Shown here piece after piece: positions 6,276-57,691 of a stretch of 60,489 nt of DNA (position 1 is the stretch's first letter; every line of letters starts with the position of its first letter). The position numbers and the translations under genes are program-made. The stretch is from an uncultured Staphylococcaceae bacterium (GTDB lineage Bacteria > Bacillota_I > Bacilli_A > RFN20 > CAG-826): the NCBI GenBank assembly GCA_964639215.1, contig CAZXCV010000007.1:6316-66804 (forward strand), read 5' to 3'. The notes beneath the pieces are model-generated. The model worked only from the letters and a program-made list of their open reading frames with translations, was not told where the DNA came from and did not search any database.

Positions 6276-7532
6276 ATGGCCGATCAAGTCGTCGCTGTTA
6301 TCGATTTGAAGGCGTTTTACGCCGTGGTAGAATGTGTCGAACGCGGGCTCGATCCTTTTACAACGCCGCTCCTTGTCGCTGATAAATCTCGAGGCAAGGG
6401 CACAATTGTTTTGTCGGTGTCGCCTTTTTTAAAGGCGCGTGGCGTTCCTTCGCGTTGTCGGGTCTTTGAACTTGTTAAATTTAATGTCACGATTGATAAT
6501 ATCTTATTTGCCACACCACGCATGAGTCTCTATTTAGAAAAATCGGCAGCCGTCATTTCGATTATGCTCGATTTTATCGGCGAGGATGATTTACACGTTT
6601 ATAGTATCGACGAATCTTTCCTAAACCTCGGCCCCTATTTGAAACTATATCGCGCAACGCCACGGCAACTTGTTACTCGCATCATCAAAACAATTCATCA
6701 AAAACTTGGCTTGTATGCTACTGCTGGTATTGGCCCTAATAACTTCATTGCTAAATCTGCGCTCGATCTTGAAGCTAAAAAATGTCAAGATGGCATCGCT
6801 GAGTGGACACTTGACGACATTAAAACAAAACTTTGGCCTCGGATTCCACTATCAACGATGTGGGGCATCTCCTCACGTCTCGAAGCCCGCCTAAACGAGA
6901 TGGGTATTCATTCAATCAAAGATCTCGCCCATTTTCCGAAAGAAGCGCTTGTGGCTTACTTTGGGATCATGGGAGCGCAATTATGGAATCACGCTAACGG
7001 CATTGATGATTCACACATCCGTCAAAAATACGCTCCAGTCGCTCCAAGTTTGAATATGGGACAAGTGCTTATGCGTGATTATCATAGCCATGAAATCCCA
7101 ATTGTGATTCGGGAAATGGTCGATGATTTGTGCATCCGTCTGCGTCTTGAAGGAAAACTGACTGGTCTTGTGTCGTTATTTGTCGGTTACAGCGAATATG
7201 GTGGTTTTTCACACCAAATGTCACTGCAACAAGCCACGGATGATAATCAAGTATTAACTGAAGCTCTACTGACGCTTTACCACCGTCATATCGATGAGCG
7301 ACGCTTTGTTCGTAACGTCGGGTTCTCGTTTGGAAAACTTGAACCGCTCGTCTACGAACAACTTAATCTTTTTATTGACCCTCATGAACAAGATGATCGT
7401 CGCCGCTTGCAACATGCACTCGATGAAATTCGCTATCGCTACGGTAAAAATGCCGTGTTGCGCGCCAACGCTTTACTTAGATCCAGTACGACCATCGCGC
7501 GGCATGAACTCATTGGAGGACATCGTCGATGA
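6276..7532 (+). CDS. Y-family (translesion) DNA polymerase, UvrX/YqjW/UmuC-like
   Basis: 418 aa. The N-terminus VIDLKAFYAVVECVERGLDP, SIDESFL and the little-finger region are typical of ImpB/MucB/SamB polymerases. RBS AAAGGAG. Confidence 0.85.
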   Translation: MADQVVAVIDLKAFYAVVECVERGLDPFTTPLLVADKSRGKGTIVLSVSPFLKARGVPSRCRVFELVKFNVTIDNILFATPRMSLYLEKSAAVISIMLDFIGEDDLHVYSIDESFLNLGPYLKLYRATPRQLVTRIIKTIHQKLGLYATAGIGPNNFIAKSALDLEAKKCQDGIAEWTLDDIKTKLWPRIPLSTMWGISSRLEARLNEMGIHSIKDLAHFPKEALVAYFGIMGAQLWNHANGIDDSHIRQKYAPVAPSLNMGQVLMRDYHSHEIPIVIREMVDDLCIRLRLEGKLTGLVSLFVGYSEYGGFSHQMSLQQATDDNQVLTEALLTLYHRHIDERRFVRNVGFSFGKLEPLVYEQLNLFIDPHEQDDRRRLQHALDEIRYRYGKNAVLRANALLRSSTTIARHELIGGHRR

Positions 7533-8471: not shown

Positions 8472-9336
8472 ATTAGAGAAGCAGCTGCGAATTGAAGCGG
8501 AACGCTTACGTCCAAATGTACTTGATCAGGTATATCAAACGCTCGGGCTTGAACCACAAACCACAAGTCGACGTCCCCGCTTTTGGAGTCTCGGTCTTTT
8601 AGGAGCTGTGACGACACTAGCTCTTGCCGGTACAATCGTCATCACTGCGATTAATAAACCAATCGTTGTCAGCCAGGCTGAAACATATGTCCGTTTACAA
8701 ATTGTCCCCGCCTCAATTGCAAATGATCAAGCTGCCATCCTGCTTGCTCAAAGAGCGCCTGATGAAGCGATCGTCCCAACTTTCTCATATAAAATAAATA
8801 TTTATGGAAAAACAAGTGCGCTTGATAATGGAAAAAACAATGCGTTACACGCTGAAAATGAAGCGGCAAAAATCATTGCTAGTGGCTTAGAACTTCGAAA
8901 AACGATAAATCAAGATCCAGCCACACTTGCCGTCTCATTAACACGCCTTGCTCGCCAAGCCGGCTATCTTGAATCATATGAGATCGGCAATATCGTCCGG
9001 TTCCGTCTCAGCGGTGATGATAATAATTATCGAGCAACATTAATTGAACAAATTCGAACATCGATTCAAAATTATTTACGTGATGAACTCATCTATGGTG
9101 TAGCTACAAATGACGAAACAATGAGTCCTCCTGATTTTGCGTCATATCAAGATTTTTCAAATCAACTAAATGAATATCGTCAATCATTCGATATGCGTTG
9201 TCAGGACCATGAAGATGATGATATGCGTCGTGGACCAAACTGGGGTCAAGATATCGACACCTGGATTGAGACACATGGCGGCCATGCAAATCATAATAAA
9301 GATGCATCCGATGCTGGTCACAGTGCCGGTCGTTAA
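8458..9336 (+). CDS. putative single-pass anti-sigma factor
   Basis: It overlaps the sigma gene and starts at ATG 8458 after the AAAGGGGG RBS. One TM helix (FWSLGLLGAVTTLALAGTIVITAI) is followed by an extracytoplasmic domain and a His/Asp-rich tail. Confidence 0.55.
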   Translation: MNRRKLEKQLRIEAERLRPNVLDQVYQTLGLEPQTTSRRPRFWSLGLLGAVTTLALAGTIVITAINKPIVVSQAETYVRLQIVPASIANDQAAILLAQRAPDEAIVPTFSYKINIYGKTSALDNGKNNALHAENEAAKIIASGLELRKTINQDPATLAVSLTRLARQAGYLESYEIGNIVRFRLSGDDNNYRATLIEQIRTSIQNYLRDELIYGVATNDETMSPPDFASYQDFSNQLNEYRQSFDMRCQDHEDDDMRRGPNWGQDIDTWIETHGGHANHNKDASDAGHSAGR

Positions 9337-9482
9337 TGTTTTTTGATTAGAACCTGCGTTGTTTTCCATTTTTACGTTCAAATATATGCGTCTATGTCAT
9401 CTTTTTAAAAATGTGTGGTAAATAATATTGCATTTTAGTCCGAAATCATCATAATTTTATCTATCGCAATGAGGTAACAATT

Positions 9483-10832
9483 ATGAATGGCAATCGCTAT
9501 ACAAAAAAAGACATTATCCAATTAGCCGCTGACGAAGGCGTCCGCTTTATCCGCCTGCAATTTACCGACATGCTCGGCACGATTAAGGCGGTGGAAATTC
9601 CATCAACCCGACTCGAAGACGCCCTAAACGGCAAAATTATGTTTGATGGTTCATCAATCGAAGGATTCGTTCGTATCAAAGAAGCTGACATGTACTTACG
9701 ACCCGATATCAACTCATGGCTCATCTTAAGCTTTGAAGATATGAACTATGGGAAAGTCGCACGCCTAATTTGTGATGTTTATACCCCTTATGGGAAACCA
9801 TTTCAAGGTGATCCACGTTTCATTTTAAAACGCGCGATTAAAAAAATGAACGATATGGGAATTGCCAATTTGAACATTGGCTTTGAACCAGAATTTTTCT
9901 TATTCAAACTCGACGCCCAAGGTAATCCGAAAACGACATTACCAAATGATGATGGTGGCTATTTTGATATGGCGCCACTTGACGGTGCCGAATACGCGCG
10001 ACGTGACATCGCTCTAGAAATGGAACGACTCGGTTTCATCGTACAAACGAGTCATCATGAAGTCGCTCATGGTCAACACGAAATTAATTTTATGTTCGCC
10101 GATGTCTTGTCGGCCTGCGATAATGTCCAGACATTCAAGCAACTTGTGAAAGTCATCGCCAGACGCCATAACTTATTTGCAACTTTCATGGCGAAACCGA
10201 TTGCCACAGTCAACGGTAACGGGATGCACACCAACTGTTCGCTATCCGATGAAAACGGGAATAATCTTTTCTATGATGAAAATGACAGCATGAAATTATC
10301 GTTATTAGCGCGCAAATGGATTACGGGAATATTGAAACACGCTCGTGGTTTCGCCGCGGTCACGAATCCAACCGTCAACTCATATAAACGGCTAATCCCC
10401 GGATATGAAGCCCCTTGTTATGCTTGTTGGAGCGATGCTAACCGCAGTTCCATGATTCGAATTCCGGCCGCTCGTGGTGAAAGTACACGCACGGAAATCC
10501 GAAATGTCGATCCGATGGCAAACCCCTATCTCGCCCTCGCCGCTATCTTAATGGCGGGACTCGAAGGCATTGAGAATCAATCGAATGAAACACTACCACC
10601 AGTATATGACAACATCTTTTCCTTAACGCGAGAGCAACGTGAAGCTCAAGGCATTCCAAACTTACCCGAAAACTTAAAGGACGCGATTAAAGAACTTAAA
10701 GCTGATCCATTGATGGTTGAAACGCTCGGCGATCACACGATTAATAGATACGTCTACGCTAAAGAACTCGAGTGGGAAGAATATCGCAAGCTCATTACCG
10801 AGTGGGAACTGCGTAAATATTTATCGAACTAA
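9483..10832 (+). CDS. glnA: glutamine synthetase, type I
   Basis: 449 aa, GS-I throughout (FTDMLGTIKAVEIP, HHEVAHGQHEINF, NGNGMHTN, SYKRLIPGYEAP). Confidence 0.95.
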   Translation: MNGNRYTKKDIIQLAADEGVRFIRLQFTDMLGTIKAVEIPSTRLEDALNGKIMFDGSSIEGFVRIKEADMYLRPDINSWLILSFEDMNYGKVARLICDVYTPYGKPFQGDPRFILKRAIKKMNDMGIANLNIGFEPEFFLFKLDAQGNPKTTLPNDDGGYFDMAPLDGAEYARRDIALEMERLGFIVQTSHHEVAHGQHEINFMFADVLSACDNVQTFKQLVKVIARRHNLFATFMAKPIATVNGNGMHTNCSLSDENGNNLFYDENDSMKLSLLARKWITGILKHARGFAAVTNPTVNSYKRLIPGYEAPCYACWSDANRSSMIRIPAARGESTRTEIRNVDPMANPYLALAAILMAGLEGIENQSNETLPPVYDNIFSLTREQREAQGIPNLPENLKDAIKELKADPLMVETLGDHTINRYVYAKELEWEEYRKLITEWELRKYLSN

Positions 10833-26367: not shown

Positions 26368-27443
26368 TTAAGAATTTCCTAATAATTTTTGCTCTTGATC
26401 ATAATTAACAAGTGCATCGATCACTTCGTCAAGTAAGCCTTCCATCACACGATCGAGCTTTTGGATTGTAAATCCAATGCGATGGTCGGTTACACGATTT
26501 TGTGGATAATTATATGTGCGAATTTTTTCAGAGCGTTCACCGGTTCCGACTTTTAATTTTCGTTCACTGCCGATTTTTTCGTCTTGCTCGGCTTGTTTTT
26601 GGGCTTGAATTTTCGCCCGTAACATTTTCATGGCCAGTTCGCGATTTTGCATTTGTGACTTTTCAACTTGGCAATAAACGGTGACTCCGGTTGGAATATG
26701 AGAAATACGAACAGCGGATTCAACTTTGTTGACATTTGACCACCCGCTCCTTGAGAACGGAATGTATCGATTTCAAGATCGGCGGGGTTAATTTGAATAT
26801 CGACTTCTTCAACTTCTGGCATAACTAGTACCGTTGCTGTCGATGTATGAATACGTCCTGATGCTTCTGTCTTTGGCACGCGTTGGACGCGATGGGCACC
26901 ACTTTCAAATTTCATTTTTGAATACACCTGGTCACCTTTGATCATGAATGAGACCAAACTAAAACCACCAGCTTCAGATGGAGAACCATCAAGCATTTGT
27001 ATTTTCCAACCATTACTTTCGGCATATTTGGTATACATGCGAAAGAGATCGCCCGCAAAAATGTTGGCTTCATCGCCACCAGCTGCGCCACGAATTTCGA
27101 TAACGATATTTTTATCGTCATTAGGGTCTTTGGGAATTAATGAAAACTTTATTTTTTCAAGCAATTCATCAAGTTTGGTACTCAAAGATCGTACTTCTTC
27201 CTTACCGAGTTGGGCAATATCAGGATCAGTGTCATCTTTCATGATAAGCGCATCATCGAGATTGGCTTCTGTTTTGTTATATATCTGGAACAAATCAAGA
27301 ACCGGAACAATTTCGGCGCGCTCTTTCGATAAATCGCGAAATTGACGAAAATCAGCGGTGATATGCTCATCGAGCAGTAACTTATCAATCGTCTCTAAAC
27401 GTTGCTGCATGGCTAAGAGCCGCGCTTTTAATGTATCTTCCAT
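26368..27443 (-). pseudogene. prfA: peptide chain release factor 1, split by a 1-nt frameshift immediately after the GGQ codons
   Basis: The two ORFs (27443..26628 and 26652..26368) together give a full-length RF1 of about 358 aa. The frame is lost at GGT GGT CAA ATG TC (26733-26744). Adding one A restores [20 protein letters not shown]... This may be an assembly error rather than a true pseudogene. Confidence 0.7.
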
Positions 27444-40952: not shown

Positions 40953-41816
40953 ATGGAATATGCATTTTCACTTAAACATGTCAGTTTCCGCTATCATAAA
41001 AAACGGCCCTTGGTACTTCAGGATATTTCACTCGACATTAAACCCGGGACAATCTTTGGTTTGCTTGGTCCCAGCGGGGCTGGTAAATCCACAACTCAAA
41101 AACTCATGTCCAAATTACTAGGCGATTACGATGGTGAGATTATTTATTTCGGCAAGAATCTCAAATCGTTTAATCACTCCTTTTATGAAGACATTGGCGT
41201 TGGATTTGAAATGCCCGTTCATTTCAACAAACTGACCGCACTTGAAAACTTAGCGTTTTTTGCGAATCTTTATAAAACGCATATCGATTATGAAGCATTA
41301 CTCGTTCGCGTCGGGCTTGGTGAAGCAAAAAACCAACAGGTTGGCCAATATTCAAAAGGCATGAAAGCTCGGCTTAATTTTGTGCGAGCATTACTTAATA
41401 ATCCCCACGTTATCTTCCTTGATGAACCAACGAATGGTCTTGATCCTAGTAATGCTCGGATTATTAAAGACATCATTTTAGAACTTAAAGCACAAGGGAA
41501 AACGATTTTCATATCGACTCATTTAATGGGAGATGTTGAAGAATTATGCGATGAAGTTGCTTTTATCGCACATGGCAAACTAATGGCAATCGATTCACCA
41601 AAGAATCTTAAAATGCAATATGGGACTCGTCAAGTACGCCTTGAATACTTAGATGGCGATACATCAAAAATGTTAAGCGTCCCCCTTCATGAATTATCAA
41701 GCAATCAATCGTTCCTCGACATTATTAAAGAAAAACCAATTATAACGATGCATACCGATGAAGTTAGTATGGAACAAATTTTCATCGACATCGTTGGAAA
41801 GCAAGCTGACCAATGA
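40953..41816 (+). CDS. ABC transporter ATP-binding protein (ABC-2 exporter type)
   Basis: It has Walker A GPSGAGKST, the signature YSKGMKARL and Walker B IFLDEPTNGLD. Confidence 0.9.
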   Translation: MEYAFSLKHVSFRYHKKRPLVLQDISLDIKPGTIFGLLGPSGAGKSTTQKLMSKLLGDYDGEIIYFGKNLKSFNHSFYEDIGVGFEMPVHFNKLTALENLAFFANLYKTHIDYEALLVRVGLGEAKNQQVGQYSKGMKARLNFVRALLNNPHVIFLDEPTNGLDPSNARIIKDIILELKAQGKTIFISTHLMGDVEELCDEVAFIAHGKLMAIDSPKNLKMQYGTRQVRLEYLDGDTSKMLSVPLHELSSNQSFLDIIKEKPIITMHTDEVSMEQIFIDIVGKQADQ

Positions 41817-42529
41817 AATCCTGGTGGACATTGTTAAAAGGCGAAATCATCCGTCTTTTCAAATATAAAATCATGTGGTTTGGCATCGCCCTTTCCTTAC
41901 TATGGGTCTTAGTTCTCGTTTTATCATCTGAAGCTGATGCCCGAGCGCTTATGCCTTTTCTTATTGTTTTGGATACTGGGATGATGGCCATCATTTTGTT
42001 AGCATCGAGTTTTTATTTTGAAAAACAAGAAAGCACAATCAAAACATTATTTGTCGCTCCAGTGACAATCAGACAGATCTTAAGCGCCAAGGTCGTTGCT
42101 TCTCTCCTATCAGGCGTTATCTCAATTGGACTCGTTGGTTTAGCGATGCTCATCGTTCATGGTGTCGTCATTAATTACGCATTAGCGTTTCTTTATGCAA
42201 TATTGTCGACATTAGCACATGTATCGATTGGTTATATCATCGTCTTCTACAGTGTTGATTTCATGGCATTTCTTATGAAATACATGGGTATGGCTATTAT
42301 GTTAATGGTACCCGTCTTACTCGTGATGCTCGACATCATTCCATCTGATCTGATCGGATTAGCGTTCATCTCGCCAAGTTACGCTGCTCAATATCTTATC
42401 AATAGCTTGTTTACGACAAGTGATATTTGGCTAATTGTCTTAGGAATCGCCGTTCTCATCGCCATTCCTTCAATCTTATATCCACTAGTGGTTTATCCGA
42501 AATTCAAGGCATATGCGGTCCGAGGTTAA
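41813..42529 (+). CDS. ABC-2-type transporter permease
   Basis: 238 aa with 6 TM helices. It overlaps the ATPase gene (ATGA). Confidence 0.7.
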   Translation: MKSWWTLLKGEIIRLFKYKIMWFGIALSLLWVLVLVLSSEADARALMPFLIVLDTGMMAIILLASSFYFEKQESTIKTLFVAPVTIRQILSAKVVASLLSGVISIGLVGLAMLIVHGVVINYALAFLYAILSTLAHVSIGYIIVFYSVDFMAFLMKYMGMAIMLMVPVLLVMLDIIPSDLIGLAFISPSYAAQYLINSLFTTSDIWLIVLGIAVLIAIPSILYPLVVYPKFKAYAVRG

Positions 42530-42531
42530 CT

Positions 42532-43344
42532 ATGAAAAAATATTTAAAACTCGTAACCTATGAACTAAAGACAATCCTTCGCGATCCCTTAAATTTGTTT
42601 TTATTGATTTATCCCGTCATTATGTTTGGACTAATCGGTTGGCTTTTACCCGCCAGTTTGTCGCGAGGTGGATTGACGAATACTGATCCAGCTTATAGCC
42701 TTACGCTCCTGATTGCCTTTGTCGTGATTATTTCGATTGGTGGTTTCGTTAGTGGTGCCCTCCTGGGCTTTTCATTACTTGAAAACAAAGATGAGAAAAC
42801 AATTTATTCGATTGCGGTCACTCCCGTTTCTATCACCGGATATATCACATTTAAATCAATTTATACATATGTGCTCGCCGTCGCTGGTAATCTCTTCATG
42901 ATTTATGCAATTAAGTGGTGGGCTTCCGATTACTATAGTTTTACATATGGACCATATACGTTCGGGTTTGATAATCTTACGGCAATCCATATATTCCCAT
43001 TCGCACTGATTAGTTCGTTATTCGTTGCCGCGGTCGGATTGCTAATTGCCTCGGTTGCCAAAAATAAAATTGAAGGCTTTGCGTTTATGAAAAGCGGTGG
43101 CATCATCTTCATGATTCCCGTGCTCGTTTTGCTTGATGCATTTAGCGATGGAAAGCAGTATCTGTTAGGCATTGCTCCCAATTTCTGGACGACAAAGGCG
43201 TTATTGAATGTCGCCTTAAACGCTGAAGGGGCTAACGATTTGCCCTATTGGGCTTATTTGTTAATTGGTGGTGTTTATATGCTTGTTTTGGCGGTAGTTG
43301 CCATTATCGCCTTTAGTAAAAAACAACAACACGGAGGTAATTAG
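42532..43344 (+). CDS. ABC-2-type transporter permease (second subunit)
   Basis: The start was chosen at MKKYLKLVTYEL, immediately after the stop of the previous permease. It has 6 TM helices. Confidence 0.7.
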   Translation: MKKYLKLVTYELKTILRDPLNLFLLIYPVIMFGLIGWLLPASLSRGGLTNTDPAYSLTLLIAFVVIISIGGFVSGALLGFSLLENKDEKTIYSIAVTPVSITGYITFKSIYTYVLAVAGNLFMIYAIKWWASDYYSFTYGPYTFGFDNLTAIHIFPFALISSLFVAAVGLLIASVAKNKIEGFAFMKSGGIIFMIPVLVLLDAFSDGKQYLLGIAPNFWTTKALLNVALNAEGANDLPYWAYLLIGGVYMLVLAVVAIIAFSKKQQHGGN

Positions 43345-43573: not shown

Positions 43574-44257
43574 ATGGAAGATGTTAAGTTATCACGCATG
43601 CCTTTGATTGGTGATCCCGCCCCTCATTTCGTCGCTAAAACGACACAAGGGACCATCACTTTCCCAGAAGACTACAAAGGAAAATGGGTCATTCTCTTTT
43701 CCCATCCAGCAGACTTCACACCCGTCTGCACCACTGAATTCATGACCTTTGCGTCAATGATTGATGAATTCAAAAGCTTGAATACCGAGTTGGTCGGATT
43801 ATCGGTTGATTCGCTTTATGCTCATATCGCCTGGTTACGAAAGATTCAAGACATTAAATGGAAGAAATTTAAAAACATCGAAGTTACTTTTCCATTAATT
43901 GAAGACATCCGCATGGATGTATCAAATCTTTACGGGATGATTCAACCAGGACAAAGCAATACCCAAGCTGTCCGGGCTGTTTTCATTATTGATCCGAAGG
44001 GTATTATCCGTTTAATGCTTTATTACCCATTATCAACTGGCCGTAACTTTGATGAAATCAAACGTTGCGTCCTCGCCTTACAAAAAGCCGATCAAGACGG
44101 CGTTGCCACTCCTGCTGATTGGCGCCCAGGCGATGATGTCATCGTACCAACCGCTGGTAGCTGTGGCACAGCCAAAGAACGGATGGAAGCCACTGATGAT
44201 GATATGTATTGTCTCGATTGGTTCATGTGCTTCCGGCGTGAAAAGAAAGCTAAATAA
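43574..44257 (+). CDS. peroxiredoxin (Prx6/1-Cys-like)
   Basis: It has the motif FSHPADFTPVCTTEF and a strong RBS AAGGAGG. Its 227 aa length fits the Prx6 subfamily. Confidence 0.85.
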   Translation: MEDVKLSRMPLIGDPAPHFVAKTTQGTITFPEDYKGKWVILFSHPADFTPVCTTEFMTFASMIDEFKSLNTELVGLSVDSLYAHIAWLRKIQDIKWKKFKNIEVTFPLIEDIRMDVSNLYGMIQPGQSNTQAVRAVFIIDPKGIIRLMLYYPLSTGRNFDEIKRCVLALQKADQDGVATPADWRPGDDVIVPTAGSCGTAKERMEATDDDMYCLDWFMCFRREKKAK

Positions 44258-45936: not shown

Positions 45937-46935
45937 TTATCCTCGTTCGTATTGGCTAATAACGAGTTCGGGTTGATATTTTTTTGCTGCTTCCATGAGC
46001 AAGAATGGATGTAACAATAATGGTCTTCCAAAGTAGATTAAATCAGCCTGATTACGTTCGAGCGCGGCTTCAGCATCTTCCACACTATTGATAAGACCGC
46101 CTCCAAATGTCAATAGACCTTTATTTCTAATGGCTTCTGAGAAAGTTAATTGATAGCCGGGATATGCCTTTGGAACAATTGGAACGATTCCACCCGAGCT
46201 AACATTAACACCATCAATGAATGGTTTGATTATATCGACGACTGCTAGTGTTTCTTCGATATGGTGCCCTTGCTTGGCATATTCTTCGGCTGATAACCGA
46301 ACCCATAAAGGTCCATCCCATTCTTTGCGAATTGCTAAGATGATATCTAACAAGAATTTTGTGCGGTTTTGTAATGATCCACCGTATTCATCGTTACGAT
46401 AATTTGTTAAAGGAGAAAGAAACTGGTTAATTAAATAACCATGGGCTCCATGAATTTCAATTCCATCATATCCAGCGATTTTGGCACGCCGCGCCCCCTG
46501 TCGAAAGGCGTCAATCACATCTTTTATTTCATCGCTTGATAAAGCAACTGGCGTGTCATATTTATCATTAAATGCCTCATTTGAACTTGAAACAATCGGT
46601 GTTCCAGTCGCTCGGCTTTTGCGTCCGGCATGAGCGAGTTGGATTGCCATTTTGCTTCCAGCAAGATGCACATCATCAATTAATTGCCTTAACGGTTCTA
46701 TTTGCTCATCACTCCAAATTCCTAAGTCATGATCCGTGATGCGCCCACGTGGTTCGACACCTGTTGCTTCTTGAATGATCAGACCAATACCTCCATATGC
46801 TCTCGCAGCATAATGAATGTGGTGGAAACGAGCGACGAGTCCATCGCGAGCGGCTGAATACATGCACATCGGCGCCATGACCGCGCGATTTTTCAATTTT
46901 AAATCTTTGATTTTAATTGGTTCAAATATTAGCAT
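45937..46935 (-). CDS. namA: Old Yellow Enzyme family NADPH dehydrogenase (YqjM/NamA-like)
   Basis: 332 aa with motifs MAPMCMY, HGAHGYLINQFLSPLTN and GRP. Confidence 0.9.
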   Translation of the reverse strand: MLIFEPIKIKDLKLKNRAVMAPMCMYSAARDGLVARFHHIHYAARAYGGIGLIIQEATGVEPRGRITDHDLGIWSDEQIEPLRQLIDDVHLAGSKMAIQLAHAGRKSRATGTPIVSSSNEAFNDKYDTPVALSSDEIKDVIDAFRQGARRAKIAGYDGIEIHGAHGYLINQFLSPLTNYRNDEYGGSLQNRTKFLLDIILAIRKEWDGPLWVRLSAEEYAKQGHHIEETLAVVDIIKPFIDGVNVSSGGIVPIVPKAYPGYQLTFSEAIRNKGLLTFGGGLINSVEDAEAALERNQADLIYFGRPLLLHPFLLMEAAKKYQPELVISQYERG

Positions 46936-49265: not shown

Positions 49266-49330
49266 ATTGTGCTCCTTAGTGTAATTTTACTATGCTTGGT
49301 TGTCATATTTGAATAGTTACTGCCTGACAA

Positions 49331-49364
49331 AAATAAAAAAGCTAGGGCGAATATGCCCTAGCCT
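49331..49364 (-). terminator. rho-independent terminator after the heliorhodopsin gene
   Basis: On the minus strand the stem GCTAGGGC / GCCCTAGC is followed by TTTTTTATTTTT. Confidence 0.8.
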
Positions 49365-49386
49365 TATTACTTAATATTCTAAAGTA

Positions 49387-50205
49387 TTAGGATGGTTGCA
49401 TCGCGCCGAAGAGCACAAGCCATGCGAGGATTGATTTAGCAACGAGCGATAACACGATATAAACGCGTTCTCCGTATAAATAGTCTTTCCATTTTCCGAC
49501 TTTGAGATATTGGAGAATCATGTTGATCGGGAAGGTGTTGAAAGCGACGAAATAGGTGCCAACAATCGCCCAAACGAACCATGGGACTTGATCATAATTT
49601 CCTGTACCAAACATATAAATCATAATGACAGCCCAGGGTGTTAAACCAGCGATCGTTCCCCAAACAAATGGACCCCAATCGAGGTGCTTTCGATCTTTGC
49701 CAACATTCAATTGTTCCATCACAAGACCAAACAAATTCATCGCGGCATTAACGACAAATATTAGTATCAGTGAGGCGATGTCTTTAACCCCAAATAACGT
49801 GGAAATTAAGACAATCATGACCGAACTAGATAACGCATATTCAAACCATCGGAATTTGTTAATCCCGACTTTTAAGTCGCGTTCATATATCGCATACGTG
49901 GGTTTTGGGAGCGAAATAAGGGCGTGGGCTAGTGCTGAAATAATGAGGAATGAAGCGACAAGCACACCAAACGGTAAATTGAATAGGAATTGAGAATCGA
50001 CAACCAAAGCTTGGGTCGGAACATCATAACGAATAAAGAATTGAACGATTTGAGGTTGGAATTCGGCAATCTTCTGAATGACTGTTCCCGCGAGAATGAG
50101 CATGATGAGGCCTTGTAATAAGTGCACGGCACCCATGATCACATTGAAGCGACGTAAACGGTCCATCTCAGTCGCCCCTTTAAAGAAGGCAAAGTATTGT
50201 TTCAT
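49387..50205 (-). CDS. heliorhodopsin
   Basis: 272 aa with 7 TM helices. It closely matches my recollection of HeR 48C12: FNVIMGAVHLLQG (conserved His), FRWFEYALSSSVMIVL (counterion Glu), VNAAMNLFG and GERVYIVLSLVAKSILAW (Schiff-base Lys). RBS AAAGGAG. Confidence 0.85.
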   Translation of the reverse strand: MKQYFAFFKGATEMDRLRRFNVIMGAVHLLQGLIMLILAGTVIQKIAEFQPQIVQFFIRYDVPTQALVVDSQFLFNLPFGVLVASFLIISALAHALISLPKPTYAIYERDLKVGINKFRWFEYALSSSVMIVLISTLFGVKDIASLILIFVVNAAMNLFGLVMEQLNVGKDRKHLDWGPFVWGTIAGLTPWAVIMIYMFGTGNYDQVPWFVWAIVGTYFVAFNTFPINMILQYLKVGKWKDYLYGERVYIVLSLVAKSILAWLVLFGAMQPS

Positions 50206-50494
50206 GGTTAATTTCTCCTTTTTTATAAAAAATATTATACGAATTCGAAATATTTTTTTCTAATGAAATGCTCAACTTTTTTAATGACTAACTTTTACTT
50301 TATTTTTTTTATTTAAAACGACTGAAGACCATTAATAATTTTTAAAAATCGGTAGCGTGATTAACGTGAGTTAATGATTTCTAATATATCCTTGTGCTTT
50401 TTTATTTTGTGCGGCTTAGCCGAGCTAATTCACGGTGCGGAGTAATATCGCTACTTGATATTTATATTTGAAGTGCTATCATAAAAGCAAAGAG

Positions 50495-50510
50495 TCGGTC
50501 ATTTGACCGA
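50495..50510. promoter_or_regulatory. perfect 7-2-7 inverted repeat, candidate TetR operator
   Basis: TCGGTCA TT TGACCGA ends 9 nt before the TetR ATG. It lies downstream of a candidate promoter (TTGATA, 16-nt spacer, TATCAT at 50455-50482). Confidence 0.5.
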
Positions 50511-50518
50511 GAAACATT

Positions 50519-51094
50519 ATGGGTCGTCCGTTAGGATACATAAACAAAACCACGATTCTTGAGGCAGTTGGTCGGCTAATCGCCACGCGAGGCATTAACC
50601 AAGTTTCTTTGCGTGATATCGCCAAAGAAACAAAACTGAGTCCTGGCACTTTGTATTATTACTATGCGACAAAAGATGAGCTGGTCTTCGATATCATCGC
50701 CAAACATATCGATGAATTAAAAGATGAATATCTTGCATGGATTGGACGACACGAACATGACTTAACAGTCGATCGCTTTTTAGAAGTCATCTTTTTTAAG
50801 GGAGTCAAACTATTCAACCGCGCGCGGTTACATATTTTTATTATTAATCAATGTATGGCTGACAATGAGACATTAAAACAACGATTTAATGACAAATATT
50901 CCGAATGGCGAACCGCGCTTCGTCAAGGTGTCATCAATATTTTTCCAAATCATCATGATCCTGAAGCATTTGCGACGCTTCTTTTGACAATTATCGATGG
51001 CCTAGTCATCCAAGAAGTTTTGAATCTGCCGGAAATCGATCAAACCCGACTCATTAACCTCGTCAAGCGGATGGGAGATTCCACGATTGAATAA
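50519..51094 (+). CDS. TetR/AcrR-family transcriptional regulator
   Basis: It has the N-terminal HTH (VSLRDIAKETKLSPGTLYYYY). Confidence 0.9.
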   Translation: MGRPLGYINKTTILEAVGRLIATRGINQVSLRDIAKETKLSPGTLYYYYATKDELVFDIIAKHIDELKDEYLAWIGRHEHDLTVDRFLEVIFFKGVKLFNRARLHIFIINQCMADNETLKQRFNDKYSEWRTALRQGVINIFPNHHDPEAFATLLLTIIDGLVIQEVLNLPEIDQTRLINLVKRMGDSTIE

Positions 51095-52814
51095 GCAAAA
51101 ATTGTTAAAACAGACGATTAAGCAAATCGAGCTTTCATTTCCGAAAGTCAACGTTAATGTTCGTGACAACATCATCTTTCTTGATGGCGAACTCTCAAAT
51201 TATGACGAAATTGTTGCGGTGGGCTATTTAGCGGCAAAAGCAAAAACCGAAGGTGTTGTTAATCGGATTAAATTATCGGGTTATCAAGAAGAACCTATGC
51301 GTATTTCACCCGAAAATGACATGAAGTATGATGGTACGTCATGTGATGTTTTGATTATTGGAGCTGGTATTTGTGGTGCGGCAATCGCACGAGAAATGAG
51401 CAAATATAAGTTAAAAACAATCGTGATTGAAAAAGAAAATGACGTTGGCCTTCATGCGAGTAGTCGCAATGATGGCGTCATTCATGTTGGGATTGATCTT
51501 AAGGTCAACACCGAGAAACACCGTTACCTTCGGCAAGCAGTGGCGATGTATCCAAAGCTGGCATCTGAATTACATATTCCATACATACAACGTGGTCAAC
51601 TTGTCGTGTTTTCTAAAGCATGGCTGCGCCCATTGATGTTCATCTTTCGCAAGATGGCGAAAAAGCGTAATATTCACGGTTTTGAAATTTGGAATCACCA
51701 GCGTTTAATGAAGGAAGAACCGCAACTAGGACCAGATGCGAAATTTGGCATTATTTTTAAAGAAGGGGCAAATATTTGTCCATATGAGACCGTCATTGCA
51801 CTTTCAGAAAACGCGATTGAAAACGGTGTGACTTTCTATCTTGATACCGCACTACTTGACATGGTAGTGACTAATGGCGTCATTAAGAAAGTTAGCACAA
51901 ATCATGGGACAATTTATCCAAAAATCGTCATCAATGCTGCTGGAACATTTTCTGATAAAGTCGCTGCTTTGGCTCATGATCAATTTTATACAATTCATCC
52001 ACGCCTTGGGATTGAAGCAATTCTAGATAAAAAGGCGAAGTCCCGCTCTTCATCACGCTCTGTATCAATGTATCGAGGAAGTCACGATCGGAAAAAAGAC
52101 CACACGAAAGGTGGCGGCATTATTCCAACGGTTGACGGTAACGTATTAATCGGGCCAACCGCTGTTGAAACACCCGAACGTGAAAATTTTGAAACCGATG
52201 CTGAAAGTATTGATGTATTATTTGCAAAGCATCATCCGACATTGCCAAAACTAGGCAAGCCCGACGTTATTACCTACTTTGCCGGCATTCGAGCTGCAAC
52301 TTATGAAGAAGATTTTATCGTTAGAATTGGTAAATGGACGCAGAACATCATCCACGTAGCCGGCATTCAATCACCTGGGCTGACCGCAGCACCAGCGATT
52401 GCCGTGACTGTCGCTAATTTAGTTGCTCGCCTCCATGGTGCGCCATTACCATTAAATGAGACATTTGATCCGATTCGGAAAGTAAGACCTCCGCTTCACA
52501 GTTTGTCACTGAATGAACGTCATCGCCACATTCTCGAAAATCCCGATGATGGTCAAATTGTTTGCCGTTGTGAAGAAATATCTCGAGGTGAAATAATCGC
52601 AGCATTGCATCGTCCACTAGTCGTCCCAACAATCGATGGCATCAAACGGCGCGTTCGTGCTGGTATGGGGCGTTGCCAGGGTGGTTTTTGCGGACCATTA
52701 ATTACCAAAATCATTCACGAGGAATTAGACATTCCCTATCTAAATATTTATAAAAAAGGTCATGGCCACATTATTTTGCGAGAGACAAAGGAAGCAACTT
52801 ATGGCGAACTATGA
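51087..52814 (+). CDS. BON-domain-fused FAD-dependent dehydrogenase (GlpA / glycerol-3-phosphate dehydrogenase-like) with BFD-like [2Fe-2S] domain
   Basis: The TTG start is 8 nt after GGGAGA. Residues 1 to about 66 fit the BON pattern (VNVNVRDNIIFLDGELSNYDEIVAVGYLAAKAKTEGVVNRIKL). The FAD motif is DVLIIGAGICGAA and the C-terminal BFD motif is CRCEEISRGEI...GMGRCQGGFC. Confidence 0.75.
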   Translation: MNKQKLLKQTIKQIELSFPKVNVNVRDNIIFLDGELSNYDEIVAVGYLAAKAKTEGVVNRIKLSGYQEEPMRISPENDMKYDGTSCDVLIIGAGICGAAIAREMSKYKLKTIVIEKENDVGLHASSRNDGVIHVGIDLKVNTEKHRYLRQAVAMYPKLASELHIPYIQRGQLVVFSKAWLRPLMFIFRKMAKKRNIHGFEIWNHQRLMKEEPQLGPDAKFGIIFKEGANICPYETVIALSENAIENGVTFYLDTALLDMVVTNGVIKKVSTNHGTIYPKIVINAAGTFSDKVAALAHDQFYTIHPRLGIEAILDKKAKSRSSSRSVSMYRGSHDRKKDHTKGGGIIPTVDGNVLIGPTAVETPERENFETDAESIDVLFAKHHPTLPKLGKPDVITYFAGIRAATYEEDFIVRIGKWTQNIIHVAGIQSPGLTAAPAIAVTVANLVARLHGAPLPLNETFDPIRKVRPPLHSLSLNERHRHILENPDDGQIVCRCEEISRGEIIAALHRPLVVPTIDGIKRRVRAGMGRCQGGFCGPLITKIIHEELDIPYLNIYKKGHGHIILRETKEATYGEL

Positions 52815-54048
52815 CATTATCATCATTGGAGGCGGACCCGCTGGTTTGGCAGCCGCTTTAAAATTAGGTCAAACATCAACCTCCGCTCTACTGATTGAGC
52901 GTGAAGCACGACTGGGCGGCATATTAAAACAATGCATCCATGATGGATTTGGCCTCTTGCGTTTTAATGAAAAATTAAGTGGGCCTGAATATGCCGAACG
53001 TGAAATTGAAGCGCTTAATGCCAGTAACGTTACGGTCAAGACCTTAACGTTTGTCACTGACATCAAAAAGCGCGATGTTGGTTTTGAATTAACGTTAATT
53101 ACCCGCCAAGGCATTGAAATTATTACTGGCAAGCGCTTGATATTAGCAACCGGTTGCCGTGAACGCACCTCAAAACAAGTCGCGATTCATGGAACTAATC
53201 CTAGTGGTGTCCTCACCGCAGGGAGCGCCCAATACTATATGAATATTTTGGGACAAATGCCGACCAAACGTTGTGTGATTTTAGGAAGTGGCGATATCGG
53301 TTTAATCATGGCTCGTCGCATTACGCTTGAGGGAGGTCAAGTGCTGGGCGTCTATGAAATCAAAGACCAACCTTCGGGGTTAACGCGCAACCTCATTCAA
53401 TGTCTCGAAGATTACAATATTCCGCTATATCTCAAAACGACAGTCACGCGCGTGTTCGGTCATGACCGCCTGACTGGGGTGGAAATCGCCCAAGTCGATG
53501 AAAAAATGCAACCCATTAAGGGAAGCGAACAATATCTGGCATGTGATGCACTCATCTTATCAGTCGGCCTAATCCCAGAAAATGAAATGGCTGAAAAACT
53601 TGAGGTCCCAATCAATCCAAAAACCAAAGGTCCATATGTTGACCAAGGGATGGAAACGTTAATTAGTGGGATCTACTGTTCCGGTAATGCTCTTCATGTC
53701 AGTGATGTCGCTGATCTTGTGTCTGAAACAGGCGAAATGGCTGCGTTAACTGCCCAAAATTATCAAAAACAATCGCGAAACCTTATTGAAATTGATATTA
53801 ATGAACGTATGGCATATGTCGTGCCTTCTCATCTTGATTTAAATAAACCGCACGATAAAGTCATCTTCTATTTCCGCTCACGCACTTGTCTTAGCAATCA
53901 ACAGCTAAAAATTTATGCTGGTGACCAATTGCTTTTATCACGAAAATATCGCAATGTACGACCACCGGAGATGGAACGGATTATTGTCGATTTAACAAAA
54001 GCAAAAAATCTTTCGACATTAAAACTACAATTGGAGGATGAATCATGA
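52801..54048 (+). CDS. pyridine-nucleotide-disulfide-family FAD/NAD(P) oxidoreductase
   Basis: The start was chosen at MANYDIIIIGGGPAGLAAA. A second Rossmann motif is VILGSGDIGLIMA. This is the usual partner of GlpA-like and DUF1667 genes. Confidence 0.8.
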   Translation: MANYDIIIIGGGPAGLAAALKLGQTSTSALLIEREARLGGILKQCIHDGFGLLRFNEKLSGPEYAEREIEALNASNVTVKTLTFVTDIKKRDVGFELTLITRQGIEIITGKRLILATGCRERTSKQVAIHGTNPSGVLTAGSAQYYMNILGQMPTKRCVILGSGDIGLIMARRITLEGGQVLGVYEIKDQPSGLTRNLIQCLEDYNIPLYLKTTVTRVFGHDRLTGVEIAQVDEKMQPIKGSEQYLACDALILSVGLIPENEMAEKLEVPINPKTKGPYVDQGMETLISGIYCSGNALHVSDVADLVSETGEMAALTAQNYQKQSRNLIEIDINERMAYVVPSHLDLNKPHDKVIFYFRSRTCLSNQQLKIYAGDQLLLSRKYRNVRPPEMERIIVDLTKAKNLSTLKLQLEDES

Positions 54049-54410
54049 AAGACGTAATTTGCATCGTGTGTCCGAATTCTTGTCACCTCCAAGTCGATCC
54101 GAAAACAAACAATGTAATCGGGCAACTTTGTCCTCGTGGCGAAGCTTATGCTATCCAAGAAATCACAAATCCAAAGCGTTCAATTACCTCAAGTGTGAAA
54201 ACAATATACAAAGAGCAACCACTCATTAGTGTGCGCACTGTAAGTGAAGTAAATAAAAACCTAATTCCGATGATTATGCAAGAAATCAAAAAAATCGTCC
54301 TTGATAAACCATTGCCAAGAGCGACTGTTATCATTGAAAATGTAGCTGGTAGCGGTGTTGATATCATCACGACAACTACTTTGCATAAAGGAGATAGTTA
54401 TGAATCGTAA
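54045..54410 (+). CDS. DUF1667-domain protein
   Basis: 121 aa with the N-terminal Cys motif CIVCPNSCHL...CPRG. It is the third member of the conserved trio. Confidence 0.75.
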   Translation: MKDVICIVCPNSCHLQVDPKTNNVIGQLCPRGEAYAIQEITNPKRSITSSVKTIYKEQPLISVRTVSEVNKNLIPMIMQEIKKIVLDKPLPRATVIIENVAGSGVDIITTTTLHKGDSYES

Positions 54411-55953
54411 TCCACTTGTTCTAACGTTTGATTGTGGGACGCAGAGCATTCGCGCTTTAATATTCGATCAAACTGGGGCGCTTCTTGCAAAAGAACAACA
54501 TTCGTTTACTCCCTATTATTCACTCAAACCTGGTTATACCGAACAAAAACCAGCGGTATATCGCGATGCCTTAAAACGCGTTTCTACTCAAATTATTGCT
54601 AATAACCCGAACTTAAAAGCTTCAATTGTTGCAGTAACAATTACGACGATTCGTGATACGTGCGTCTGTCTTGATGAGAATGGAGAGCCGCTGCGCGACA
54701 TTATCGTTTGGCTCGACCAACGCATGGCGCAGTGCTCTAATAAATTACCGGCTGTTTCACGCGCCTTATTTGCCGTCGCGGGAATGACAGATGCCATTGC
54801 CGACCAACGAAAAATAACTAAAAGCAACTGGCTGATCGAAAACGAACCCGAACTATGGAATAATACCGTTAAATATGTGATGTTCTCGACATATATGGTG
54901 TCACTATTAATCGGTAAAATCATCGATAGTTCCGCGAGTCAAATCGGACACATTCCGTTTGATTTTAAGAATAAGGCTTGGTATCAACCATCCCATTTCA
55001 AGTTTCCAATCTTCAATGTTCCACTTGAGAAACTACCTCCGATTATCGAACCGGGCGAGACGCTTGGTTATATTAGTAAAGCGGCAAGTCTTGAGTTTGG
55101 GTTACCTGAAGGATTACCACTAATTGCTACTGGTTCTGATAAAGGCTGTGAAACACTAGGGACTGGCGTTGTTGATACGACGATGGCTTCCTTAAGTTTT
55201 GGCACGACGGCGACGATTCAAACGACAACAAGGAAGTACCTTGAACCAGTCCAATTCATGCCGGCATATCCTGGCGTCGCCCCCGGTACCTATAATCCCG
55301 AGATTCAAATTTACCGAGGTTATTGGATGGTCAGTTGGTTTAAAAAAGAATTTGCAAGTAAAGAGGTTAATGAGGCGCCACAACTTGGATTATCACCAGA
55401 ACAATTATTAAATCAACGGCTCAAGGAAATTCCGCCCGGTTGCGATGGGTTATTATTACAGCCGTATTGGGCGCCACTACTCAAGAGTCCAGAAGCCAAA
55501 GGGGCAATTATCGGCTTTTCCGGTGATCACACGCGCATTCATATCTATAAGGCGATCATTGAAGGAATCGGTTATGGTCTGATTGATGGGCTTCGCCATC
55601 TCGAAAAACGTCTCCATCATAAAATAAGAGGATTAACCGTATCTGGTGGCGGTTCGCAAAGCGATGAAATTTGTCAAATAACGGCCGATATGTTCGGATT
55701 ACCTGTATCCAAGATTCAAACGTATGAAGCTTGTGGTCTTGGTAGCTCGCTCGTCGCCTTTGTGGCTTTAGGGATTCATAAAACATACGAAGATGCAGTA
55801 AAAGAAATGGTGCATTACGAAAAAGTTTATCAACCAAATGATGATGTTCATCGTATCTATGACCGTCTGTACCGAAAGGTATACACAAAAATATATCCAT
55901 CCCTTCGTCCCCTCTACCGCGAATTAAGAAAATTTGAACAAGACAAGGAGTAA
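54400..55953 (+). CDS. FGGY-family carbohydrate/polyol kinase (not a canonical GlpK)
   Basis: The start was chosen at MNRNPLVLTFDCGTQSIRALIFD. It has FGGY N- and C-terminal domains (GSDKGCETLG, VSGGGSQSD). Confidence 0.8.
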   Translation: MNRNPLVLTFDCGTQSIRALIFDQTGALLAKEQHSFTPYYSLKPGYTEQKPAVYRDALKRVSTQIIANNPNLKASIVAVTITTIRDTCVCLDENGEPLRDIIVWLDQRMAQCSNKLPAVSRALFAVAGMTDAIADQRKITKSNWLIENEPELWNNTVKYVMFSTYMVSLLIGKIIDSSASQIGHIPFDFKNKAWYQPSHFKFPIFNVPLEKLPPIIEPGETLGYISKAASLEFGLPEGLPLIATGSDKGCETLGTGVVDTTMASLSFGTTATIQTTTRKYLEPVQFMPAYPGVAPGTYNPEIQIYRGYWMVSWFKKEFASKEVNEAPQLGLSPEQLLNQRLKEIPPGCDGLLLQPYWAPLLKSPEAKGAIIGFSGDHTRIHIYKAIIEGIGYGLIDGLRHLEKRLHHKIRGLTVSGGGSQSDEICQITADMFGLPVSKIQTYEACGLGSSLVAFVALGIHKTYEDAVKEMVHYEKVYQPNDDVHRIYDRLYRKVYTKIYPSLRPLYRELRKFEQDKE

Positions 55954-55957
55954 CCTT

Positions 55958-57691
55958 ATGAGCAATAAACCTTACAAAGGCTATGAACCACAATGGATTG
56001 CCAGACCAGCACCAGCCAATTCATTTCGCTCAATTTTTCGCTGGGGTGACCCCAATTATTACAAATGGCCGAAAGAAACTTTATTCAAAGCCATCAAGGA
56101 AAAATTTGGCTTAACCGATGATGATTTCAAGAAGTATGATGGGGATCTCGGATTCGGAGAAGTAAAATATCATGTGCCTTCAATGATTGAGGAGCGTCAC
56201 ATCGAGGCATTTAAAAAGATAGTCGGCGTTAATTTTGTTCGGGTCGATGATTATGCTCGTCTTAGCGTCGCTTATGGTAAAACGATGTTTGACGTTTTAC
56301 GAATTCGTCAGCAAATTATCGAAAATCTGCCTGATGTCGTCTTATATCCCGATGACCGTGAACAAATCGAGGCAATTGTTGCTTACTGCGTCAAAGAAAA
56401 AATCCCGGTCTATGTTTATGGAGGCGGGTCAAGTGTCACTCGCGGTGTTGAATGTATGAAGGGTGGCGTATCGCTTGATATGCGACTACGCTTCAACAAG
56501 GTTGTCAGCTTCAACGAGATTGACCAAACGATTACCGTGCAAGCAGGTATGAGCGGTCCGCAACTCGAAACCGCATTAAATGAAGCGCCAGTTCGCTTTA
56601 AAGCAAAACGCCAATACACATGTGGTCATTTTCCCCAGTCGTTTGAATATAGTTCTGTCGGAGGTTGGGTCGTGACCCGTGGTGCTGGGCAAAATAGCAC
56701 TTATTATGGAAAAATTGAAGATTTGGTACTTGAACAGAAATATGCCACCCCAATTGGAAATATCGTGACGTCCCCTTATCCACGCGAAGCGACCGGTCCT
56801 TCGCTCAACCATATCATGATGGGATCTGAAGGCGCTTTTGGTGTTTTAACCGATGTCACGCTCCGAATATTTCGACTGACAAAAGCCAATCGCAAGAAAT
56901 TTTCTTATATGTTCAAAACTTGGGATGATGGCATGGCGGCCACACGCGAAATGATGCAATGTGAAGCTGGATTTGCCTCGGTGTTCCGTCTTTCAGATGC
57001 TGAAGAAACCGATGTAATGATGCGCTTATATAATGTCGATGAATCGCCACTTGCCCCCATTTTTAAAATGCGTGGGATGAAACCGATGGAACGCTGTTTA
57101 TTTTTGGGTTGGAGTGAGGGTGAAAAAGGCTTTGCCAAAAATGTCGCCCGAAACATCCATCGCATTGCCCGAAAACACGGGGGCATGAATTTAACAAGCA
57201 TTGTCACAAACGCATGGGAACATGGACGGTTTACCGACCCCTATTTACGTGATTCGATGCAAGATTTTGGCATCTTAACCGACACGCTCGAATGCAGCGT
57301 CTTATGGTCAAACATGGAACAAGTTCATCAAGCTGTGCGCACTTATTGTAAATCACGTCCACAAACGATTGTGACGACTCACCTATCACACGCTTATCCT
57401 CAAGGCGCCAACCTCTATTTCATTTTCATTACGAAGATGAACGATATTGATGACTATCTTGCCTACCACTCGGGTATTCTTGATGCGATTCAAGCTTCAG
57501 GCGCGAGCATGAGCCATCATCACGGGATTGGTAAAATGTTCGGGCGCTGGTTAGAAGGTTCACTTGGAAGCATTGAATACAGTGTTTTAAAAGCATTGAA
57601 ACAGCATTTTGATCCTGACAATTTAATGAATCCTGGTGGAACATTGGGATTTGATTTACCTAAAGAGAAACTTAAGTTTTTAAAAAAATAA
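55958..57691 (+). CDS. FAD-linked oxidase, alkyl-dihydroxyacetonephosphate-synthase-like
   Basis: The start is after AAGGAG. It has an N-terminal extension of about 100 aa (FRWGDPNYYKWP) and a PCMH-type FAD-binding domain (YVYGGGSSVTRG). The C-terminal motif HHHGIG is typical of AGPS/GlcD-like enzymes. Confidence 0.7.
   Translation: MSNKPYKGYEPQWIARPAPANSFRSIFRWGDPNYYKWPKETLFKAIKEKFGLTDDDFKKYDGDLGFGEVKYHVPSMIEERHIEAFKKIVGVNFVRVDDYARLSVAYGKTMFDVLRIRQQIIENLPDVVLYPDDREQIEAIVAYCVKEKIPVYVYGGGSSVTRGVECMKGGVSLDMRLRFNKVVSFNEIDQTITVQAGMSGPQLETALNEAPVRFKAKRQYTCGHFPQSFEYSSVGGWVVTRGAGQNSTYYGKIEDLVLEQKYATPIGNIVTSPYPREATGPSLNHIMMGSEGAFGVLTDVTLRIFRLTKANRKKFSYMFKTWDDGMAATREMMQCEAGFASVFRLSDAEETDVMMRLYNVDESPLAPIFKMRGMKPMERCLFLGWSEGEKGFAKNVARNIHRIARKHGGMNLTSIVTNAWEHGRFTDPYLRDSMQDFGILTDTLECSVLWSNMEQVHQAVRTYCKSRPQTIVTTHLSHAYPQGANLYFIFITKMNDIDDYLAYHSGILDAIQASGASMSHHHGIGKMFGRWLEGSLGSIEYSVLKALKQHFDPDNLMNPGGTLGFDLPKEKLKFLKK

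Follow-up and report, generated by a model that had tools for sequence, protein, structure and literature searches.

A canonical heliorhodopsin encoded by a solitary gene in an uncultured member of the Bacilli

We analyzed a 60,489-nucleotide stretch of DNA (hereafter, the window) from an uncultured Staphylococcaceae bacterium (GTDB lineage Bacteria; Bacillota_I; Bacilli_A; RFN20; CAG-826), corresponding to positions 6,316 to 66,804 of contig CAZXCV010000007.1 in GenBank assembly GCA_964639215.1. The window carries a heliorhodopsin (HeR) gene that is followed by a LURP-one/YxjI-like gene, a gene for a 580-amino-acid (580-aa) membrane protein, and genes for an Old Yellow Enzyme (OYE) and a peroxiredoxin, and that faces a divergent operon led by a TetR gene (Table 1). 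A first-pass annotation had described it as a stand-alone heliorhodopsin gene with no retinal pathway nearby. We found that it encodes a canonical, intact, and full-length heliorhodopsin, i.e., an ordinary addition to a well-known family, which NCBI's HeR model would name as such.

The heliorhodopsin gene and its product

The predicted protein matched Pfam family PF18761 (E = 1.9e-94) with 316 bits, against a cut-off of 26.7, over profile positions 1 to 242 of 242, and the NCBIfam equivalog model for heliorhodopsin HeR (NF038020) with 293.2 bits, against a cut-off of 100. Among the sequences of solved structures, it matched solely heliorhodopsins (TaHeR, E = 6e-51; eukaryotic Cv06, 2e-48; 48C12, 7e-45; range to 3e-44). 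The motifs GAVHLLQ, RWFEYALSSS, and SLVAKSILAW, which had been read as hallmarks of the family, place His28 in transmembrane helix 1 (TM1), the counterion Glu122 in TM3, and the Schiff-base Lys257 in TM7, and these residues aligned with H23, E107, and K241 of 48C12. Besides, two further conserved residues, His94 and Ser253 (the latter one turn before the lysine), correspond to H80 and S237 of 48C12. All five residues were invariant in 83 of 83 aligned HeRs, and the matching residues of TaHeR align as well.

An AlphaFold2 model built with 22 homologues (mean predicted local distance difference test score, 84.9) has seven helices and, between TM1 and TM2, the family-typical beta-hairpin in extracellular loop 1 (ECL1) with strands at residues 52 to 61 and 66 to 76. 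When the model was compared with the PDB by Foldseek, ranks 1 to 10 were all HeRs (template modeling [TM] score, 0.79 to 0.91), and type 1 rhodopsins appeared from rank 11 on with TM scores of 0.67 or less. Its TM scores with TaHeR (PDB 6IS6) and 48C12 (PDB 6SU3) were 0.81 to 0.91; these two proteins are 40 to 42% identical to the window HeR over the full length and have the same His/His/Glu/Ser/Lys constellation and ECL1 beta-hairpin, although their host phyla differ. The identification as a heliorhodopsin therefore stands, with both HeR profiles far above their cut-offs and the modeled fold nearest to solved HeRs, and we consider it very probable that the protein is a true retinal-binding HeR.

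The side of the protein that holds the N terminus and the loops 2-3, 4-5, and 6-7 carries 12 lysine and arginine residues, versus 3 on the opposite side. This positive-inside count, the sole basis of the assignment, fits the inverted topology with a cytoplasmic N terminus. Within the clade to which the protein belongs, G237, K238, and W239 of GKWKD, the loop that joins TM6 to TM7, are invariant.

The strong ribosome-binding site and the separate terminator described earlier were both recovered: AAGGAG lies 9 nt from the ATG, and the terminator, first placed at 49331 to 49364, consists of an 11-bp stem (49365 to 49338) and a T-run and is the strongest hairpin of the region. Because the gene has its own promoter-like site and this strong terminator, while the downstream LURP-one gene has its own Shine-Dalgarno sequence and terminator, the expression signals support the earlier proposal that the HeR gene is monocistronic. 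In L001, a related locus with the same gene order, the Shine-Dalgarno sequence, the terminator, and the -10 hexamer of the candidate promoter are kept, but the -35 hexamer is not. A 27-nt block around the -10 box is identical in the two loci, whereas the spacer around it has otherwise diverged. This block occurs once in the window, was not found 5' of HeR in any of the other 79 loci compared, and could be an operator; as a general HeR regulator site it was discarded, since it is lineage specific and thereby uninformative. Control of HeR by the TetR regulator was likewise set aside, because the perfect palindrome of the intergenic region adjoins the start of TetR, lies some 230 bp away from the HeR promoter, and is kept in loci without HeR; it is likely the operator of the TetR operon and not of HeR.

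In comparison with six close relatives (the syntenic L001, L083, L088, and L089, plus L002 and L003), the proportion of nonsynonymous differences (pN) was 0.08 to 0.13 and that of synonymous differences (pS) was 0.73 to 0.82. Since synonymous sites are saturated while pN is low, the protein is evidently under strong purifying selection. Recent transfer of the gene was considered on the basis of G+C content, which gave no such signal (42.9% for HeR and 41.2% for the window).

Distribution of relatives and the fate of HeR in syntenic loci

Searches of protein databases returned 4,625 homologues at an E value of 1e-10 or lower. The best 120 of them are 70 to 91% identical to the window HeR and, where a name is given, usually bear that of "heliorhodopsin HeR"; the named sources among these 120 are Bacilli, Izemoplasmatales, Acholeplasma, Trichococcus, and Sedimentibacter, and near-identical proteins are already deposited as "heliorhodopsin HeR [Bacilli bacterium]." Relatives are encoded by 425 stretches of species-representative genomes, the closest being from metagenome-assembled genomes (MAGs) of uncultured Bacilli (84 to 89% identity), and HeRs of 70 to 77% identity occur in Acholeplasma laidlawii, Trichococcus, Christensenellaceae, Proteiniclasticum, Anaerolineaceae, and Dehalococcoidales. 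Relatives of 70 to 91% identity are thus spread over Bacilli, Mollicutes, Clostridia, and Chloroflexi.

A rough distance tree made by neighbor joining grouped the window HeR with that of L001, next with L002 and L003, and next with L005 and L016 and with L004. This subclade lies within one tight clade of Bacillota, Mollicutes, and Chloroflexi, far from 48C12 and TaHeR. A 13-residue N-terminal extension of the window HeR is shared only with L001 to L004. The closest studied protein is TfHeR of Trichococcus flocculiformis (PMC9769723), which belongs to the same tight clade and is 73% identical over residues 15 to 271, with identical key residues; one of our loci (L029) is the published Trichococcus contig NZ_FOQC01000073.1. 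TfHeR does not have the N-terminal extension and is clustered with a class II cyclobutane pyrimidine dimer (CPD) photolyase and DUF2238, whereas the window HeR is monocistronic and no PF00875 protein was found in the 60 kb.

Pfam scans of the 57 pruned open reading frames (ORFs) of at least 80 aa in the window, 6 of which had no family match, detected no crtE, crtB, crtI, or crtY product, no Blh/Brp protein, carotenoid oxygenase, short-chain dehydrogenase, or photolyase, and no polyprenyl or phytoene synthase, phytoene desaturase, or lycopene cyclase. The absence of retinal-pathway genes from the window was thus confirmed at the Pfam level, but the oddity that the first-pass annotation implied for a solitary HeR was not. 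Cotranscription with neighbors is predicted for only 38.6% of helR genes (PMC11109279), and in a GTDB survey, a full retinal pathway was present in 1 of 381 HeR-only genomes, for which capture of exogenous retinal has been proposed (bioRxiv 10.1101/2021.02.01.429150). Because most HeR genes are not cotranscribed and HeR-only genomes mostly have no full retinal pathway, a solitary HeR without nearby retinal genes is normal for the family and unsurprising.

The gene order TetR operon, HeR, LURP-one, 580-aa gene, OYE, peroxiredoxin, and ABC-2 type system is kept in L001/L085, L083, L088, and L089, where HeR is 80 to 89% identical to that of the window, versus 47 to 76% for the flanking proteins. 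In L087, decay is seen at positions 5478 to 6000 and 6487 to 6804. The slot of HeR holds a 3' remnant of it (residues 170 to 271; 57% identity) that is interrupted by three stop codons and by frameshifts; the 580-aa gene is cut to about 35 N-terminal codons, and LURP-one, OYE, and the TetR operon are intact. The homologous HeR terminator also persists there. In L101, the slot between TetR and LURP-one (positions 7223 to 7429) is 207 bp long and contains neither HeR nor a remnant, and the 580-aa gene is kept. A coupling of HeR with the 580-aa gene, which the two remnants in L087 had suggested, was rejected, because L101 has the 580-aa gene without HeR and distant homologues (L097 to L100) are not near HeR. 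The HeR genes of L002 and L003, whose products are 84 to 85% identical to the window HeR, stand in a different context, directly upstream of a gene for an ATP-binding cassette (ABC)-ATPase fusion protein, unlike that of the window, and HeR of L004, in the window's own subclade, adjoins a photolyase gene. Since the slot holds an intact copy, a remnant, or nothing, HeR is an accessory single-gene unit. It is under strong constraint in the loci that have it, some sister lineages have lost it, and its neighbors are independent of it. The loci with the same order (L083, L088, L089, L101, and the window) range from 41% to 53% in G+C content, a wide spread for one syntenic lineage.

Genes around HeR in the window and in related loci

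The surroundings described in the first-pass annotation were largely recovered, i.e., LURP-one, the 1-Cys peroxiredoxin, and the divergent TetR/flavoprotein operon, which is separated from HeR by 313 bp. Of the supposed DUF4153-OYE pair, OYE held, whereas DUF4153 found no support in Pfam or NCBIfam. The protein so labeled is the 580-aa one, for which the best Pfam hit (E = 0.038) was an unrelated domain well under its cut-off and NCBIfam gave none. It has about 10 to 11 predicted membrane helices, evolves fast (47 to 54% identity in syntenic relatives), and had only 14 homologues among 5.8 billion proteins; it is an unclassified lineage-specific membrane protein. The 415-aa predicted surface protein encoded between OYE and peroxiredoxin is missing from the syntenic relatives, in which these two genes adjoin, and its gene is a lineage-specific insertion. 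The glnA gene is about 39 kb from HeR, as stated earlier, and the decision not to link the two was right.

Table 1. Coordinates of the heliorhodopsin gene, its signals, and other features of the window and of related loci
Feature	Position	Strand	Remarks
Heliorhodopsin (HeR) coding sequence, 272 aa	49387..50205	-	ATG start; Pfam, NCBIfam, alignment, AlphaFold2 model, Foldseek
Shine-Dalgarno sequence AAGGAG, 9 nt 5' of HeR ATG	50215..50220	-	Read from sequence; kept in L001
Candidate sigma-70-like promoter of HeR, TAGAAA-17-TATAAT	50234..50262	-	Matches 10 of 12 consensus positions
27-nt block AATATTTCGAATTCGTATAATATTTTT	50228..50254	-	Spans -10 box and 8-nt palindrome CGAATTCG; identical in window and L001
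Intrinsic terminator of HeR	49328..49365	-	11-bp stem with 6 G-C pairs, 6-nt loop, T-run
LURP-one/YxjI-like protein, 165 aa	48768..49265	-	PF04525, E = 5e-12; own AAGGAG; own terminator at 48742-48721
Polytopic membrane protein, 580 aa	46946..48688	-	Soluble C-terminal part of about 200 aa; outside known families
Old Yellow Enzyme (OYE)/NamA-like NADPH dehydrogenase	45937..46935	-	PF00724; NCBIfam NF010047, 405.8 bits, under cut-off of 431
Predicted surface protein, 415 aa	44407-45654	-	No family match
1-Cys peroxiredoxin	43574-44257		
ABC-2 type system	40953-43344		Nearest ABC system; 6.9 kb from HeR, with genes in between
Palindrome TCGGTCA-AA-TGACCGA (TCGGTCAAATGACCGA)	50495..50510	.	Perfect; just upstream of TetR start codon; kept in L001, L087, and L101
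Divergent TetR-led operon	50519..57691	+	TetR, flavoprotein (glycerol-3-phosphate-oxidase/GlpA-like, DAO+BFD), Pyr_redox_2, DUF1667, FGGY sugar kinase, GlcD-like FAD oxidase
PAS-GGDEF-HD-GYP signaling protein, 472 aa	59020-60438	+	9 kb from HeR
glnA	9483-10832	+	39 kb from HeR, opposite strand
HydABC-type [FeFe] hydrogenase, three genes	248-4435	-	Probably electron bifurcating
prfA (release factor 1)	26368-27443	-	Upstream of prmC; split
Tandem CrtISO/CrtI-superfamily and LURP-one operon, related loci	L090 1354-6483; L095 1383-6525; L094 2450-6486		Lineage of 57-63% G+C

Neighbors were also surveyed by clustering the ORFs within 10 kb of 80 related HeR genes; ORFs of the comparison loci were called mechanically. 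The commonest nontrivial neighbor was a class II-type DNA photolyase, found in 17 of the 80 loci and within 1.5 kb of HeR in 13, and the loci bearing it, L004 included, represent about seven distinct branches in the HeR tree. Short-chain dehydrogenase/reductase and DUF2238 genes also recurred, consistent with the ten published neighbor groups (PMC11109279). Four further kinds of neighbor are outside those ten groups: a tocopherol-cyclase-like protein (PF14249) adjoining HeR in seven loci (L005 of A. laidlawii, positions 8937 to 9911, and L042, L058, L066, L078, L035, and L040); a TspO/MBR tryptophan-rich sensory protein gene about 50 bp 3' of HeR in Clostridia-type MAGs (L065, L070, L071, and L072); a PadR/HAAS pair near HeR in six loci; and a Na+/H+ exchanger in four. 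Palindromes of the type TGTGAC-N3-GTCACA, which look like operators of a regulator, lie within 75 nt 5' of HeR in five loci of Christensenellaceae and Clostridiaceae (L006, L010, L007, L008, and L015).

Two apparent links between the window and other HeR loci did not withstand inspection. The ABC ATPase at 40953 to 41816 seemed to recur in 20 of the 80 loci, mostly through generic ABC similarity of 25 to 35%, and is orthologue-like only in L001, L012, and L024. The 472-aa ORF, which had matched two HeR loci and was considered as a possible photolyase, is the PAS-GGDEF-HD-GYP signaling protein; in L001 and L037, homologues of it are likewise found no more than 10 kb from HeR.

A search of metagenome contigs with LURP-one returned 14 loci, 9 with usable flanks. 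Of these 9, an intact HeR lies no more than 6 kb away in 6, a HeR remnant is present in 1, and 2 have no HeR. Three arrangements were observed. In the window lineage (window, L001, L083, L088, and L089), LURP-one immediately follows HeR; it is 3.4 to 4.6 kb from HeR, at the end of a photolyase-side gene string, in L039 and L043 (32 to 37% G+C); and in L090 and L095 (57 to 60% G+C), it ends an operon of two CrtISO/CrtI-superfamily flavoenzymes, divergent from HeR. These flavoenzymes scored 238 bits on a carotenoid-isomerase model, under its cut-off, and L094 has the same operon with no HeR nearby. OYE lies less than 1 kb from HeR in L048, L059, and L067, 2.4 kb in the window lineage, and 5 to 9 kb in Trichococcus, a recurrence similar to that of LURP-one but weaker. 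In the literature searched, we found no link of HeR with LURP-one, YxjI, or OYE, nor was LURP-one mentioned in the searched part of the supplements to the neighbor survey (PMC11109279).

Elsewhere in the window, the deletion of one base immediately after the GGQ codons splits prfA, and reading continues in another frame. Because TAG stops are in use, ending 5 of the 57 ORFs, the cell would be expected to require release factor 1; the split probably reflects an error of assembly or sequencing, but it could be a real frameshift.

Proposed light-dependent partner regulation and its alternatives

The computations here cover the family and fold of the protein, its catalytic residues and topology, and the expression signals, purifying selection, and accessory status of the gene, and the mechanism outlined below draws on published relatives. 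With a probability of roughly 0.6, we favor a canonical functional HeR that obtains retinal by scavenging or from unlinked genes and regulates a partner in a light-dependent, non-pumping manner. All-trans-retinal would bind Lys257 with Glu122 as its counterion, as in relatives, and the host, a putative fermentative monoderm of class Bacilli, would most likely scavenge the retinal or make it from unlinked genes. As for the cell envelope of the host, judged from gene content, the closest genome records are labeled Bacilli bacterium, the window encodes the Bacillota-typical YfhO, YitT, and YolD, and no outer-membrane marker was seen in it. Absorption of green light would lead to a long-lived state in a slow photocycle with no ion pumping, and in that state, the basic cytoplasmic loops may bind a partner enzyme or transporter and alter its activity. 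That HeR acts as a helper in sensing or regulation, and not as a transporter, seems fairly probable. The partner would be encoded elsewhere, most likely a class II CPD photolyase or another light- or oxidative-stress enzyme; we suggest a photolyase-type partner because TfHeR, the closest studied relative, binds and enhances photolyase (PMC9769723) and photolyase is the commonest neighbor in the clade, but photolyase as the specific partner must be regarded as a rather doubtful guess.

Regulation of partners by HeRs has been published for a glutamine synthetase (AbHeR; PMC9529153) and for an ABC exporter (OcHeR; PMC11109279). AbHeR and the OcHeR-OmrDE system belong to the same family as the window HeR and probably share with it light-dependent partner binding via the cytoplasmic loops, the GKWKD loop being conserved. 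In gene order, they differ from the window: glnA adjoins and is cotranscribed with HeR in the AbHeR type, and a heterodimeric multidrug ABC exporter is part of the HeR operon in the OcHeR-OmrDE type, whereas the window has glnA on the other strand, and its only nearby ABC system is the ABC-2 type one, 6.9 kb away.

Several observations weigh against the partner-regulating HeR proposed above. HeR of the window adjoins neither a photolyase nor a glutamine synthetase operon partner nor a multidrug ABC exporter. The host is probably a fermentative anaerobe, because it carries a HydABC-type [FeFe] hydrogenase, and such an organism is an unexpected home for a photoreceptor; with a hydrogenase-bearing host and several relatives in sediment or bioreactor MAGs, exposure of the cell to light may be limited. 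Besides, a 2025 preprint casts HeRs as two-chromophore light harvesters, not sensors (bioRxiv 10.1101/2025.11.27.691015).

That preprint suggests an alternative in which the window HeR would harvest light with the aid of a second antenna, a scavenged carotenoid, and would not be a pure sensor. Its fenestration motif comprises, in 48C12 numbering, aromatic residues at 162 and 206, nonbulky residues at 166 and 210, and Gly at 169, and the window HeR satisfies all of the proposed positions, with the aromatic pair F180/F222, the small residues T184 and P226, G187, and N223; within the clade, these positions vary little or not at all. Thr184 replaces the Cys166 of the reference HeRs TaHeR and 48C12, and Pro226 replaces Ala at position 210, as in eukaryotic Cv06. 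However, the preprint bases its case for HeRs on structure and docking and not on energy transfer demonstrated in a bacterial member of the family, non-viral HeRs are not known to have any energy-conserving output, and the host resembles an anaerobic fermenter; we hold light harvesting to be improbable here. A role in light-gated transport of protons or ions, on the model of the viral V2HeR3, is still less probable, although ion transport has been demonstrated for some viral HeRs. The HeRs 48C12, TaHeR, and TfHeR are reported as non-transporting. The window HeR clusters with bacterial HeRs and has the fenestration motif, whereas the transporting viral subfamily is without it (bioRxiv 10.1101/2025.11.27.691015).

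The decayed copy in L087 and the empty slot in L101 could also be taken to mean that HeR is a functionless relic being lost from a dark-living anaerobe. We regard this as very unlikely for the window, where the protein is full length with all key residues intact, pN is low while synonymous sites are saturated, and the -10 block, Shine-Dalgarno sequence, and terminator are kept with L001. Somewhat less remote, yet unlikely, is that HeR works with its neighbors, LURP-one (a Tubby/scramblase-like lipid-binding barrel) and perhaps OYE, as chromophore handler or light-regulated partner. The occurrence of LURP-one beside HeR in three arrangements and in unrelated lineages of 32 to 60% G+C appears to be above chance for a usually single-copy gene, and OYE recurs as well; this is a weak lead, as the reverse search reached only close homologues of LURP-one, its sampling is biased, and the enrichment is an informal, back-of-the-envelope estimate. 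In the window, HeR and LURP-one have separate promoter-like sites and terminators; LURP-one is kept without an intact HeR in L087, L092, L094, and L101, and LURP-one and OYE are intact where HeR is decayed (L087) or absent (L101, L094, and L092). Also, the HeRs of L002 and L003 have wholly different neighbors. As a long shot, the Tubby-like barrel of LURP-one/YxjI, the CrtISO/RetSat-like flavoenzymes, and OYE might make up a new HeR chromophore-acquisition or partner module in anaerobic monoderms unable to make retinal, of which the downstream LURP-one would be the first traceable member.

The window HeR adds one more strongly conserved photoreceptor in a hydrogen-producing fermenter. The series of syntenic loci with an intact, a decayed, or an absent copy shows that gain and loss of HeR involve this single gene as a unit. 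The association of LURP-one with HeR offers a weak but testable lead on the chromophore source of HeR-only bacteria and on the partners of HeRs.

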